Part shown: piece by piece, positions 51,995 through 56,084 of the stretch
Position numbering within the stretch: the first letter of the stretch is position 1
Layout of the letters: every line of letters begins with the position of its first letter
IMG/VR virus record: IMGVR_UViG_3300043398_000262
Location: 1-58,085 of that record
Reading direction: 5' to 3' (one strand)
Origin: a virus
Taxonomy: Duplodnaviria > Caudoviricetes
Length of the DNA: 58,085 nucleotides
Translations under genes and position numbers: made by a program
The notes under the pieces: generated by a model
The model's input: the letters and a program-made list of their open reading frames with translations, nothing else
Told to the model about the DNA's origin: nothing
The model's database searches: none

Positions 51995-52326
51995 TTGGGC
52001 TCCTTCAAGGCGCGTCGTCCCCAGGCCTTGATGTCAAACCACAGCACGAATAGCGTGTTGGTGGCCAGATGAGCAGCCACCAAATATCCGCTTTCATCAT
52101 CCCACACCTTGCCGTCAAGTAGCTCGGCCCAGTGGCGACCAGCAGCCGCTACGTACGTGTCTCGGGTGAACGGCAGCCGCTGCCAGCTGCGTGGCTCGTG
52201 CTTCTTGGCGCCGAACGTCAGAATCTCGGCAATCGCCACCAGCGGCTCGCCTGGGAGCAAGTCCATCCTGGGCTTCTCAGCCTTGGCGGCTGCGGTCTGA
52301 ATCACGTGGTCGGACGCCGTGCTCAT
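51991..52326 (-). CDS. dATP/dGTP diphosphohydrolase-like (DUF5664) protein
   Basis: KPRMDLLP...LTFGAKK....W....AA.RH....D.ESG....HLA.N. Confidence 0.75.
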   Translation of the reverse strand: MSTASDHVIQTAAAKAEKPRMDLLPGEPLVAIAEILTFGAKKHEPRSWQRLPFTRDTYVAAAGRHWAELLDGKVWDDESGYLVAAHLATNTLFVLWFDIKAWGRRALKEPK

Positions 52327-52841: not shown

Positions 52842-53662
52842 CGGATGGCTCTCGAGACTTGGGCAAGCATAGACTCGCCGCTTACAATCGGGACGTTGAT
52901 ATGGATGAACCGGCCGGACTTCGAAACTACCTCCAGCCCGTAGCCGTGCGCCCACTGAGAGACGTTTGTGTGCATATACAGCGGCTGAATACGAGCCAGC
53001 GTGCCGGGCGACCACGCGCCGAACAGACCCTTGTCGACTGACCTGCCGTGAACGCTGACAGCACGATGGATATGCCCGAAAACAACGTTTGCGCCGAACT
53101 TACTCAGGTGCACAGCAGCTGCGTGTGCCGAGGCACTTAGCCCATGCGTCACGTACACCGACGTTCCGCCAACGGTCAGTTTCAGCGTACCTGGGATACT
53201 GCAGCCCGGCATGAACTCGTTACGCTCAATGTAGCGAATACCGCGCGTCTTCAACTTCAGCGCCGCGGCGGGGCCCATAGCCGCCAAGTAGCTATCGGCG
53301 TCTTTCTTGTTGAAGAAAGTGGATGTAGCCCATTTCTCTACCCGAAATTCGTGGTTCCCAGCCACGTACCAAATACGTGCCTTGGGTGCCGCCTTGTGGA
53401 TTGCGTCCAGAAATTTGTTGGTGAACGCGACATCGTCTTCGTAAGACTCAGCCATTTCGTTGGTATATGACCGACTGTGCGTCGTAAAAATACCGCCACA
53501 ATCTAAATGGTCGCCCAGCATGACGATTTCGTCAGGAGCCAACCGCTTCAAGTCGGCTAAGAACGCAGCTTCTGCTGCTGGGTCGATATGAGCGCCATGG
53601 CTGTCAGGAATGAACACCCTGGTGACGTCTTTCGATTGAACTGCTTTTGCTCTAGTCGCCAA
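52838..53662 (-). CDS. Calcineurin-like metallophosphoesterase
   Basis: DSH, GDHLD, GNHE, THG, GHIHR; start position uncertain. Confidence 0.88.
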   Translation of the reverse strand: MATRAKAVQSKDVTRVFIPDSHGAHIDPAAEAAFLADLKRLAPDEIVMLGDHLDCGGIFTTHSRSYTNEMAESYEDDVAFTNKFLDAIHKAAPKARIWYVAGNHEFRVEKWATSTFFNKKDADSYLAAMGPAAALKLKTRGIRYIERNEFMPGCSIPGTLKLTVGGTSVYVTHGLSASAHAAAVHLSKFGANVVFGHIHRAVSVHGRSVDKGLFGAWSPGTLARIQPLYMHTNVSQWAHGYGLEVVSKSGRFIHINVPIVSGESMLAQVSRAIR

Positions 53663-53694
53663 AGTGTAACTCCAATTCTTGGGGTAAAGACAGG

Positions 53695-54201
53695 TTATGG
53701 TGACACGCCACGACTCTTGGGCCAGCTAGTTCTGGCGAAACTGCCGTGCAAAGCTTTTCTCGCCTCACGAACAGCTGCAATAGCGTCGTCTTTGTTCTCA
53801 AAGTACCCGACAAAGACCCGTTTTCCTTTGAACCCAACGCGGGCGAGCCATTTGCCGTACAGCGGGAACCAGCAAACACCCTTTTCGCCTGAAGTATTGT
53901 TCTTAGGAGCGCCTTTGTTCCAGACATTCTCGGCATTAGAACAGAGCCGCAGATTCTCTCTGCTGTTGTTAAGCCCATTGCCGTCTATGTGGTCAACTTG
54001 CAGACCCTTAGGCGCATTTAGTAGGAATCGGTGAAGATACTGGGTAGAGTCTCTGCCGTTTACCCTAATGTGCCGCAAAACATAGGCTGAGTATTTATTA
54101 GGCTTCTTTTCCAGATGCCAAGGGCCCGCTTCTTTGACTGCCTCTAAGTCAGCGTCATCCACGATGACCACGAAGCCTGAACGTATTTCGAAGCTAGCCA
54201 T
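53695..54201 (-). CDS. HNH-AP2 homing endonuclease
   Basis: LHRFL...VDHIDGNGLNNSRENLR, SGEKGV.W....W.A....VGYF...A..A....LHGSFA. Confidence 0.92.
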   Translation of the reverse strand: MASFEIRSGFVVIVDDADLEAVKEAGPWHLEKKPNKYSAYVLRHIRVNGRDSTQYLHRFLLNAPKGLQVDHIDGNGLNNSRENLRLCSNAENVWNKGAPKNNTSGEKGVCWFPLYGKWLARVGFKGKRVFVGYFENKDDAIAAVREARKALHGSFARTSWPKSRGVSP

Positions 54202-54480
54202 TGAACTTGCCTCCTGGCCACCTAGCTTAGTTTGGCGATATTCTTTGTCAGCAAAGACTGAATGGTCTCACCAATGTCGGCTGCGTCCATCGCAACCTGA
54301 CACAGATATGCCTGAATTGCATCCAGCCACTGGTCAGGCATCACCACTTTGCCGTGCCACGTAGACTTCTTGACCAGCTCGGCCAAACGCCCCGCCAGCA
54401 CCGGCAACGTGCCCTGGTGCATTGGCACCACCAGAGGCAGCTGGGCGTCAGTAATGCCGGCATTTATCACGAGGCGACTG
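54194..54480 (-). pseudogene. 3' remnant of a MazG-like pyrophosphohydrolase
   Basis: LAGRLAELVKKSTWHG...TIQSLLTKNIAKL, then ARWPGGKFNG in a shifted frame; no own start. Confidence 0.6.
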
Positions 54481-54930
54481 CGGCTCTGAGATGGTTCCGC
54501 GCATTGCAAACGCCGCAGATTCCACCTCGCGCTGCGCAGCACTCGCGTCAAACCGTGCCCTTGCTACGCGAAGGATCCAGGGGAACGTTCGGACGATCCT
54601 TAGTAGCGCGAGCCCTGCCGCGGAAGTCTCTCCAGCCTTCCAGCGAGCAATGGTACGCGGCGCCAAGCCAAGCGCGCGCTCCATGTACGCCATCGTAACT
54701 CGCTCCTTTTCGAGCGACTCGATGATGAGCCTCAAGGAAGCCTTATCGGCTTCGGCGATGGCTTGTCGGACAACCTCTGTTGCGCCGTCGTCCTGGTACC
54801 CTTCGTCGCAGTTCCGGCACTTCACCATGGGAACTTCATAATTGACGGCGGTTCCATAGGGAGGCTCATAGCGGCGGCGATCCAGCCTGCGCTCGACTTG
54901 AGTTGAACCGCATATGCGACACTTTTGCAT
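54448..54930 (-). CDS. MqsA/YgiT-type zinc-ribbon HTH antitoxin (orphan)
   Basis: CRICG...VPMVKCRNCDE zinc ribbon plus MAYMERALGLAPRTIARWKAG HTH; GAGG RBS. Confidence 0.82.
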   Translation of the reverse strand: MQKCRICGSTQVERRLDRRRYEPPYGTAVNYEVPMVKCRNCDEGYQDDGATEVVRQAIAEADKASLRLIIESLEKERVTMAYMERALGLAPRTIARWKAGETSAAGLALLRIVRTFPWILRVARARFDASAAQREVESAAFAMRGTISEPQSPRDKCRHY

Positions 54931-54938
54931 CTCTACCT

Positions 54939-55088
54939 CTACGCCCGTGGCCCATGCAAAGACTTGAGGGCGTGTTCGGCTTCAGCTGACTCGCCACACA
55001 GCCCCAGGGCACACTGCTCCAGCGGAATGAACTGACCGTCCTTGCGGCCCATAGCCAGCACCATTTCGTTGTACTCGAATCCGAACAT
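54939..55088 (-). pseudogene. 5' remnant of a MazG-like gene (49 aa, not in ORF track)
   Basis: GGAGG RBS, then MFGFEYNEMVLAMGRKDGQFIPLEQCALGLCGESAEAEHALKSLHGPRA; ALGL.GE..E is the MazG first helix. Confidence 0.65.
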
Positions 55089-55106
55089 TGCTTGCCTCCA
55101 AACACA

Positions 55107-55367
55107 CTAAAGAAGTCACCAAATGTACCGCAGCTGCCGCAGGGATTAGTCCCGATTGCCGTGGTTTGGTGGCTTCTTTAGGGCGACGACTCAGCAGCTG
55201 TTTCATGCGGCGAAACAGTAAAAACACCTGTCGCAGGCTCTCCCTGCGCACCATGGCTGCTGAGTCGTTGCAAAATAATAGAGTCAACCGCGCAAGTATT
55301 CGCCGGCCGGGGCATGCTGCAGCTGTTTCCCGACTACTGTAGGCAGCGTACTTGGACGCGGTTGGCT
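55107..55367 (+). ncRNA. Candidate structured RNA/ssDNA: three tandem stem-closed domains
   Basis: Closing stems 55107-55123/55165-55181, 55184-55201/55253-55270 and 55282-55298/55349-55367, each with internal hairpins; mismatches are G-U compatible on +. Confidence 0.5.
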
Positions 55368-55418
55368 AAGCTAAACCCGGCGGCTTGCTGAGAACAACCC
55401 AGCACGCAACCCGTGGAA

Positions 55419-56084
55419 CTAAGCCGAAACTCCGAAGCGGGCCTTGAACTCGGCCAGCTCAATGCACTCTGACGTAGCCTCGTTGAACACGAAGCTGGAG
55501 TCATCAGGATGCACCTGGAAACCTTGGGCCACTAGCTCGTTGGCCAGCGTCTTGACGACGGCAGCACGCGTTGGCAGCGCCGGCTTTGCCTTGACGGGCT
55601 CGGCCGTCGCTGGCTCGTTAGCCGAGTGCGGATAGAACTCGTAAAAGACAGTCGGATTGCCTTCCTTGTTCGTCCACGGAACCGCCTCAACCACCACACG
55701 ACGCCCCTTGAGAGGGCTGACAGGGCGGCTGATTGCACTCTGGTACCGCACGTTGTCGATTTGGTTGGCGTCACCAGCCTCTAGACCGCAGATAGCGGCC
55801 ACGGTGCGCTTGATTTTCCCAAGCTCACGCTGATAGGCGCTATCGCGCGGCATGCGTCCGCCACCCTTGGCGTCGTGCGGATAGACCTTGAAATCAGCGC
55901 GCAAGCCAGCGGCACTGGGGCCGGACTCAACGGTGAACTCGACGATGAACCCCTTGCCCTGGAGACCAGTGTGCTCCTTGACGTCCTGGACGATTACCAC
56001 GTGCGTGCCGGGCTTGAGCTTTTCCTTGGCCGTCTTGTTGCCAGGAATATACGCGCTACCCATATCAAAGCTGTCGTTACCCAT
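55419..56084 (-). CDS. Putative single-stranded DNA-binding protein
   Basis: Position between helicase and nucleotide genes; OB-like beta pattern (LKPGTHVVIV...FIVEFTV...LKGRRVVVEA); GGAG RBS before ATG 56084. Function inferred. Confidence 0.5.
   Translation of the reverse strand: MGNDSFDMGSAYIPGNKTAKEKLKPGTHVVIVQDVKEHTGLQGKGFIVEFTVESGPSAAGLRADFKVYPHDAKGGGRMPRDSAYQRELGKIKRTVAAICGLEAGDANQIDNVRYQSAISRPVSPLKGRRVVVEAVPWTNKEGNPTVFYEFYPHSANEPATAEPVKAKPALPTRAAVVKTLANELVAQGFQVHPDDSSFVFNEATSECIELAEFKARFGVSA

Follow-up and report, generated by a model that had tools for sequence, protein, structure and literature searches.

Antitoxins carried by phages without a toxin partner are known, and T4 Dmd is a phage-borne antitoxin used as counter-defence. 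Orphan DarG-like antitoxins (NADAR proteins) are carried by T4-like phages as counter-defence, according to PMC11825919. Two further sources report that MqsRAC gives E. coli protection from T2 (PMC9519451) and that a toxin–antitoxin–chaperone (TAC) antitoxin without its C-terminal tail is chaperone-independent (bioRxiv 10.1101/2024.02.24.581848). Here we analyse IMG/VR record IMGVR_UViG_3300043398_000262, a single metagenome contig of a phage found in freshwater/aquatic metagenomes, in which the gene for a toxin-less MqsA-type antitoxin lies inside a broken MazG-like pyrophosphatase gene. The window is the whole of this record, 58,085 bases long and estimated to be 32% complete. As with the DarG-like NADAR proteins and Dmd, the phage carries an antitoxin homologue without the toxin; however, those proteins are experimentally proven and are enzymatic (type IV) antitoxins or unrelated proteins, whereas the present one is of type II, a protein-binding MqsA-type antitoxin, caught as a polymorphism inside another gene and with a function that we infer. 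No phage example of an MqsA-type antitoxin turned up in the literature searched, and it is the type II MqsA-type antitoxin, together with the preserved before and after alleles, that is new here.

A comparison of alleles leaves us in almost no doubt that the locus holds a recent and still polymorphic non-homologous replacement, in which 501 bp of foreign DNA stand in place of 102 bp of the MazG-like gene. For this comparison, Logan contigs of four runs (X1, X3, X4 and X5) were aligned to positions 53400-55900 of the window. X3 and X4 are different samples of the same study, which differs from the study of X1, and X1 is possibly the source sample of the window. The features of the locus, including its open reading frames (ORFs) and the helix-turn-helix (HTH) antitoxin, are as follows.

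54470..54970, minus strand: foreign block of 501 bp replacing 102 bp of the MazG-like gene; GC 0.60 versus 0.57 in the window; three GATC sites
54939..54970, minus strand: insert-encoded tail (A)LKSLHGPRA plus stop, 10 codons, in frame after MazG codon 39
54448..54930, minus strand: MqsA-type zinc-ribbon/HTH antitoxin ORF, 160 aa; residues 1-153 insert-encoded, last 7 codons plus stop (54469-54448) MazG DNA read out of frame
54971..55088, minus strand: 5' part of the MazG-like gene, codons 1-39 plus 1 nt; ExxE motif G-E-S-A-E kept; stretch shared with the insert-free allele
54222..54469, minus strand: 3' part of the MazG-like gene, sharing the frame of the 5' part up to a premature TAG (54224-54222); identical in X1, X3, X4 and X5
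54194..54229, minus strand: original MazG C-terminus ARWPGGKFNG-stop, now out of frame

All coordinates of MazG and antitoxin features given below likewise refer to the minus strand. A contig of 871 nt from X3 matches the window at 54261-54469 and 54971-55530 with 0 differences over 209 + 560 bases and has 102 other letters in place of 54470-54970; this is the insert-free allele. It is because the 769 flanking bases compared between the two alleles are identical that the replacement must be recent and polymorphic. The insert form is found in two studies (the X1 sample and X4): a 232-nt contig of X4 bridges 54469/54470 with 174 and 58 letters on its two sides and 0 differences, and a separate Logan assembly of X1 spans the whole region in a contig of 44,750 nt. 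The second junction, 54970/54971, is spanned only by assemblies that may come from the source sample; X4 has no contig over it and X5 has none over either junction, coverage holes that are uninformative. A pattern scan of IMG/VR and JGI metagenomes for the two flanks separated by a gap of 90-115 nt returned no insert-free copy. Because the window is a single metagenome contig, an assembly chimera with junctions that occur in no real molecule could be suspected, as the original prediction had cautioned; with one junction bridged without differences by the X4 contig of an independent study and the region spanned by the separate X1 assembly, this is extremely improbable. What had been proposed as a plain insertion into MazG is, by the X3 contig, a replacement of 102 bp by 501 bp.

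The inserted DNA is foreign by its GATC content. The window has 6 GATC sites against ~181 expected, and it is because 3/6 of them sit in the insert that the latter stands out as foreign. Within the insert the sites (54574, 54595 and 54879) occur at normal frequency, 3 against 1.3 expected, while outside it the ratio of observed to expected is 0.02, with sites at 1092, 24901 and 51126; the binomial probability of finding at least 3 of the 6 sites in the insert is 1.3e-5. These counts agree with the earlier remark that a ~0.5-kb insert holds three GATC sites in a GATC-poor genome. A repeat scan at the junctions found no terminal inverted or direct repeats and no target duplication, a result that favours illegitimate recombination over a transposon. 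The insert-free allele, the foreign GATC content and the lack of junction repeats together bear out the recent capture by illegitimate recombination that the original prediction had put forward. GATC avoidance as extreme as that of the window suggests a host with GATC-directed restriction. Phage relatives recovered via the metallophosphatase gene have ordinary GATC counts, for example 160 in 16.8 kb of one of them (L011).

MazG enzymes have ExxE and ExxD as their metal-binding motifs. Both flanks of the insert align to a single MazG-like protein, P0012 (165 aa), and are, as predicted, the two halves of one gene. The N-half ORF (55088-54939, 49 aa) reads ...ALGLCGESAEAEHALKSLHGPRA-stop, so that MazG does run into LKSLHGPRA-stop as first noticed, and its residues 2-43 correspond to P0012 residues 3-45 (27/43 identical, 63%, pairwise E 9e-17). 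A phmmer search with the 82-aa C-part, exhaustive over 1.84 billion representatives, gave four matches, namely the window's own call, P0012 (query 2-81 against residues 76-155, E 5.7e-9, 42% identity) and two long multi-stretch proteins taken as noise. Word-indexed protein searches with the same part returned only the window's own 66-aa call, and an ESM Atlas search returned MazG/PRA-PH clusters at 0.85-0.86, a result at lead level only.

When CTAA is read as one step, the C-half continues as ...NIAKL-ARWPGGKFNG-stop, ends at 54194, and aligns with P0012 ...NITKLRARWPNG at 33/63 identical residues (E 1e-19, P0012 residues 100-162), which confirms that the expected ARWPGGKF end has been frameshifted. 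At the frameshift site the window has KL-ARWPGG where P0012 has KLRARWPNG, one residue fewer, and a 2-nt deletion fits. Contigs of all four runs, from two studies and with that of the insert-free allele among them, agree with the window at this site; because they show no differences there, the frameshift is no sequencing error, and it is a fixed feature of the population present in both alleles. Some impairment of the MazG-like gene may predate the capture. The frameshift lies 20 nt ahead of the start of the adjoining HNH endonuclease gene.

The central part of the enzyme is missing from the window, as the original prediction had stated: P0012 residues ~42-75, which include ELGD (the ExxD motif, also present in L031 and L032), have no counterpart there, and the window copy has ExxE, with the ExxD segment absent and replaced by the insert. 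Since 54971 falls on a first codon position and 54469 on a second, the reading frame is maintained across the 102 letters of the insert-free allele. With the two split codons included, these letters amount to 35 codons, as against the ~34 residues of P0012 that the window lacks. Without the insert the gene would have ~155 codons and be collinear with P0012, and, judged by their size and frame, the 102 bp would encode the ExxD segment.

The MazG fragments alone gave no notable Pfam or PHROG match (the best MazG-like phrog families had E 0.12 and 0.24), and a search through all six frames of the window with PF03819, PF12643 and phrog_229 found no match. The family assignment comes through P0012, which matches phrog_229 'MazG-like pyrophosphatase' (E 1.3e-16) along with three other MazG-like PHROGs; its Pfam MazG score of 17.1 bits is below the 22-bit cut-off, and its best PDB sequence matches, though weak, are MazG-type pyrophosphohydrolases (5ie9, E 0.044; 2gta, E 0.9). 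A viral contig encoding the same long architecture (L031) scores 26.8 bits with Pfam MazG, above the cut-off, and a shorter classical form (L032) scores 36.4 bits. P0012 is an intact homologue, and the form found here (155-165 aa, shared by L031) exceeds in length the usual ~130-aa form, of which L032 is an example. Compared with phage MazG-like pyrophosphatases (phrog_229; PF03819), the flanks in the window match both ends of a phrog_229 protein and keep ExxE, but the gene is broken, its ExxD segment replaced and its C-terminus frameshifted. It is a disrupted member of this family, and the capture destroys the gene.

The captured antitoxin gene comes with its own ribosome-binding site, GAGG, 5 nt before the ATG and inside the 8-nt spacer that separates the ATG from the stop of the LKSLHGPRA tail, as read by three-frame translation; relatives show the same spacing. 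The tail may be what remains of the 3' end of the donor's upstream (toxin) gene, as the original prediction suspected, and a search with the toxin-family profile found no similarity in the N-fragment. The window has no toxin gene, and at most 10 toxin codons remain. In the antitoxin, C4, C7, C38 and C41 are invariant in 8/8 aligned sequences, as is the HTH core M-A-Y-x-E-R...R-T-x-x-R-W-K. The protein scores 23.7 bits with TIGR03831 (YgiT zinc finger), above the cut-off of 20.2, and 33.2 bits with TIGR03830 (MqsA family; E 3.8e-8, residues 4-117), below the cut-off of 61.8; on these profile scores it would be classed as a distant MqsA relative and no curated TIGR03830 member. Pfam HTH_3 gives E 0.011, below cut-off. 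After the conserved [FY]PW motif the antitoxin has a tail of 42 residues, 35 of them insert-encoded, and the foreign DNA ends inside this variable C-terminal tail. The ribosome-binding site and zinc ribbon that had been predicted are present, together with a putative HTH, but the gene is not the complete one envisaged, its last 7 codons being MazG DNA. A protein database entry for this gene, P0001, has 126 aa starting from Met35 and does not include the first CxxC of the zinc ribbon; we prefer the 160-aa start because the N-terminus and the first CxxC align with the homologues.

A word-indexed protein search gave 7 homologues besides the window's own call, the best 57% identical. The wider set of 89 homologue loci (2 viral, 7 genome and 80 metagenome contigs, with redundancy kept, as L002 = L035) allows the genomic context to be compared. 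Among 76 loci whose upstream flank reaches at least 450 nt, 63 have an adjacent upstream gene on the same strand, assigned by profile to a family that we call A2, and the other 13 do not. For the A2 protein, Pfam, PADLOC and PDB sequence searches gave no match, and sequence profiles of the antitoxin and toxin families, run against PDB, did not reach MqsA or MqsR; the assignment is by fold comparison only. The AlphaFold model of A2 (pLDDT, the predicted local distance difference test, 88.5) has E. coli MqsR (3hi2_D) as its top Foldseek match (E 0.022, probability 1.00, target template-modelling score 0.71), and VIA comparison with this chain gives Z 11.1 at a root-mean-square deviation of 2.2 A over 89/91 residues, the next best being Z 6.0. 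The models thus point to a true antitoxin family whose upstream partner is a predicted MqsR-fold toxin, and the homologues, far from lacking toxin partners, have an MqsR-fold neighbour at 63/76 loci. The proposal that the insert is a fragment of a host toxin–antitoxin operon therefore stands in respect of the operon family, while 'host' is an assumption.

These observations also bear on the alternative that the zinc-ribbon/HTH protein is a DNA-binding regulator of phage or host genes and neutralises no toxin. Although the family is most conserved in its HTH core and 13/76 loci show no detectable toxin, no operator was identified, pairing with a toxin is the rule (63/76 loci) and the toxin-binding zinc ribbon is fully conserved; we regard a purely regulatory role as quite improbable.

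Toxin binding is also predicted by a co-fold of the window antitoxin with the toxin of a homologous locus (L003), which scored 0.75 versus 0.00 for the best control, a mark reached by 58/80 solved complexes and 2/110 mismatched pairs. At least 82% of contacts are in agreement among the three runs, the pLDDT of the partner is at least 85, and the predicted interface involves antitoxin residues 3-58, the zinc-ribbon domain. Since the complex of MqsR with the MqsA N-domain (3hi2) is already solved, the co-fold shows likeness and not binding, and the score may reflect the model's familiarity with that complex. The likeness to E. coli MqsR/MqsA extends to the four-Cys zinc ribbon at the N-terminus followed by a putative HTH, to the toxin gene coming first in relatives and having a partner of the MqsR fold, and, in the models, to predicted contact through the N-terminal domain of the antitoxin. 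However, the sequences are distant, with the family profile finding no MqsA chain in PDB, the phage copy lacks a toxin and is truncated at its C-terminus, and many relatives add a DUF6941 gene.

The genes around 54194-55088 are all on the minus strand, and comprise the following.

58043-56193, minus strand: helicase-like gene
56141-55419, minus strand: 240-aa ORF
55089-55418: stretch of ~330 nt without an ORF of note, 5' of the MazG-like start
54201-53695, minus strand: free-standing HNH endonuclease gene (PF13392, HNH_3, 39.2 bits versus a cut-off of 24.8, E 5.3e-10; phrog_99, E 7e-41)
53662-52838, minus strand: metallophosphatase gene
52027-52296, minus strand: dGTP_diPhyd_N gene (dATP/dGTP diphosphohydrolase N-terminal domain; PF18909, 79.7 bits)

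The ATG of the HNH gene overlaps the old MazG stop codon, and this adjoining endonuclease is a plausible source of the DNA break that enabled the exchange. A terminator-like hairpin lies on the minus strand at 55238-55226, inside the stretch without an ORF. The dGTP_diPhyd_N gene is a second gene of nucleotide-pyrophosphatase type near the broken MazG-like gene and also occurs in the relatives L011, L012 and L014.

Searches of the GenBank phage collection gave no match by blastn with the region, nothing useful by tblastn with both MazG fragments and one distant match with the helicase as query, and IMG/VR searches with the 240-aa neighbour and with the helicase found no relatives. Seven phage relatives (L011-L017) were recovered via the metallophosphatase gene; helicase and phosphatase are common to them, and between the two genes they have no ortholog of the MazG-like gene but a dGTP_diPhyd_N gene instead. 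As a candidate counterpart of the MazG-like gene, the dGTP_diPhyd_N gene of these relatives was rejected on a negative BLASTP comparison. Weak tblastn matches of the MazG fragments in L011 and L012 were likewise dismissed, as ORF reading placed them inside apparent portal and small-terminase genes.

The second nucleotide-pyrophosphatase-type gene enters a further explanation, in which it was the loss of MazG that was selected, for instance because the enzyme or its central helix triggers host defence, and the inserted DNA is filler. The replaced segment does take away the ExxD motif, the gene carries a fixed 3' frameshift, and with the dGTP_diPhyd_N gene present the MazG-like gene might be superfluous. 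Such a loss could, however, have come about by a simple deletion or point mutation, nothing in the analysis shows that MazG-like proteins trigger defence, and an intact, correctly oriented antitoxin gene would be left unexplained as filler, so that we give this explanation little chance.

We propose instead the following sequence of events. The phage would originally have had a MazG-like pyrophosphatase gene of intact length, ~155 codons. In one lineage the central 102 bp, which would encode the ExxD helix, were exchanged non-homologously for 501 bp of a bacterial-type mqsR/mqsA-like operon, the captured piece running from the last few codons of the upstream gene through the ribosome-binding site of the antitoxin to 153 antitoxin codons; the neighbouring HNH endonuclease may have supplied a double-strand break that was repaired with foreign DNA. 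The captured gene stands in sense orientation in the phage gene cluster and has kept the four-Cys zinc ribbon and the putative HTH. During infection the toxin-less antitoxin would be made, perhaps driven by the phage operon as the original prediction supposed, and its zinc-ribbon domain would bind and neutralise an MqsR-type RNase toxin of a toxin–antitoxin or three-gene system of the host, so that the phage would escape growth arrest or abortive infection. We hold such an anti-defence function to be a serious possibility, and advance it tentatively.

Several points weigh against it. A promoter scan of 53600-55500 found 0 sigma-70-like sites. The toxin in the co-fold is a stand-in, from a locus whose antitoxin is only 38% identical to that of the window, and with the closest homologue only 57% identical the donor need not be the host. 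The 13/76 homologue loci without a detectable toxin indicate that a solitary antitoxin of this family can have other explanations. For the insert-free allele, it is the length and frame of the 102 letters that point to an ExxD-coding segment. The insert-free allele persists in the same study, with no sweep evident, and, as the event is very recent, the intact ORF says nothing about selection.

The last of these points belong equally to the main rival explanation, in which the insert is a neutral or slightly harmful passenger, the debris of a chance illegitimate recombination, perhaps from repair of an HNH break, that has yet to be purged. The coexistence of both alleles with identical flanks, in a very young event without a visible sweep, is consistent with this, as are the cut 3' end of the antitoxin and the loss of the MazG-like C-terminus in both alleles, which suggests that the locus may be under relaxed constraint. 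However, the insert form has spread beyond a single sample, being present in two studies (the X1 sample and X4), and the kept piece is exactly the antitoxin with its ribosome-binding site, in sense orientation, with the conserved domains intact and the toxin absent, while the truncated ORF retains the predicted toxin-binding surface. A mere passenger is possible, but in our estimation rather unlikely.

In many relatives the MqsR-fold toxin and the MqsA-type antitoxin are followed by a third gene, of the DUF6941 family, which is present at 41 of the 71 homologue loci with at least 700 nt downstream and is often translationally coupled to the antitoxin gene. Three of these loci are listed here; the cassette occurs at 38 further ones.

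L003:5576-7010: MqsR-fold toxin, MqsA-type antitoxin and DUF6941
L008:5580-6984: the same cassette
L004:5562-7013: the same cassette

The model of the DUF6941 protein (pLDDT 89.2) is an all-beta sandwich, for which Foldseek gave weak matches to folds of the RhoGDI, PDE-delta and UNC119 types (E ~2e-3); no SecB-like match is among the best 50 Foldseek rows, by which the SecB family is not excluded. The family finds no mention in the literature searched, and PADLOC gave no match for the toxin, antitoxin or DUF6941 proteins. The length of the antitoxin tail after [FY]PW is associated with the third gene, with a median of 78.5 residues (n=34) when it is present versus 37 (n=22) when it is not (Mann-Whitney p 2.7e-7, a value that ignores relatedness, as sequences were dereplicated by identical C-terminal sequence only). 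Loci were dropped from this test when the ORF ran off the contig, when the motif was absent, or when there were fewer than 500 nt downstream without a match.

The three-gene layout of the relatives and the long antitoxin tail when the third gene is present resemble the MqsRAC and TAC systems. The third protein of the relatives is nevertheless modelled as a beta sandwich, with no SecB-like match among the Foldseek rows listed, and a defence role of the cassette is hypothetical. The cassette might be an undescribed three-part phage defence in which a non-SecB third component acts on the antitoxin tail; the tail-less antitoxin of the phage would then be a constitutively active antidote that escapes this control, and the two alleles a live record of the acquisition of counter-defence. 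This extended scenario we consider doubtful.

Two of the homologous loci have other arrangements. L002:5413-6841 (a viral contig, the same as L035) is a second phage-type contig whose MqsA-type gene is without an MqsR-like partner, with a SocA/Panacea-domain protein upstream (PF13274, E 2e-18) and a 151-aa ORF with an H-E-x-x-H-like motif downstream. At L010:5986-8036, from a gammaproteobacterial metagenome-assembled genome, the antitoxin is cut to 152 aa by a 401-aa ORF with DUF6941 inverted beyond it, and a mobile element seems to have broken up the cassette.

Phage counter-defence genes presumably originate in hosts, yet their acquisition is hardly ever observed as it happens. In the present case one can identify the recipient gene and an operon of the donor type, as well as the two junctions and the insert-free allele, and the foreign DNA still carries GATC sites, which the rest of the phage genome avoids. 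The two alleles form a natural near-isogenic pair of phages, with and without the MqsA-type antitoxin, that is directly testable, and the locus is also a pointer to a widespread, uncharacterised MqsR/MqsA/DUF6941 cassette.

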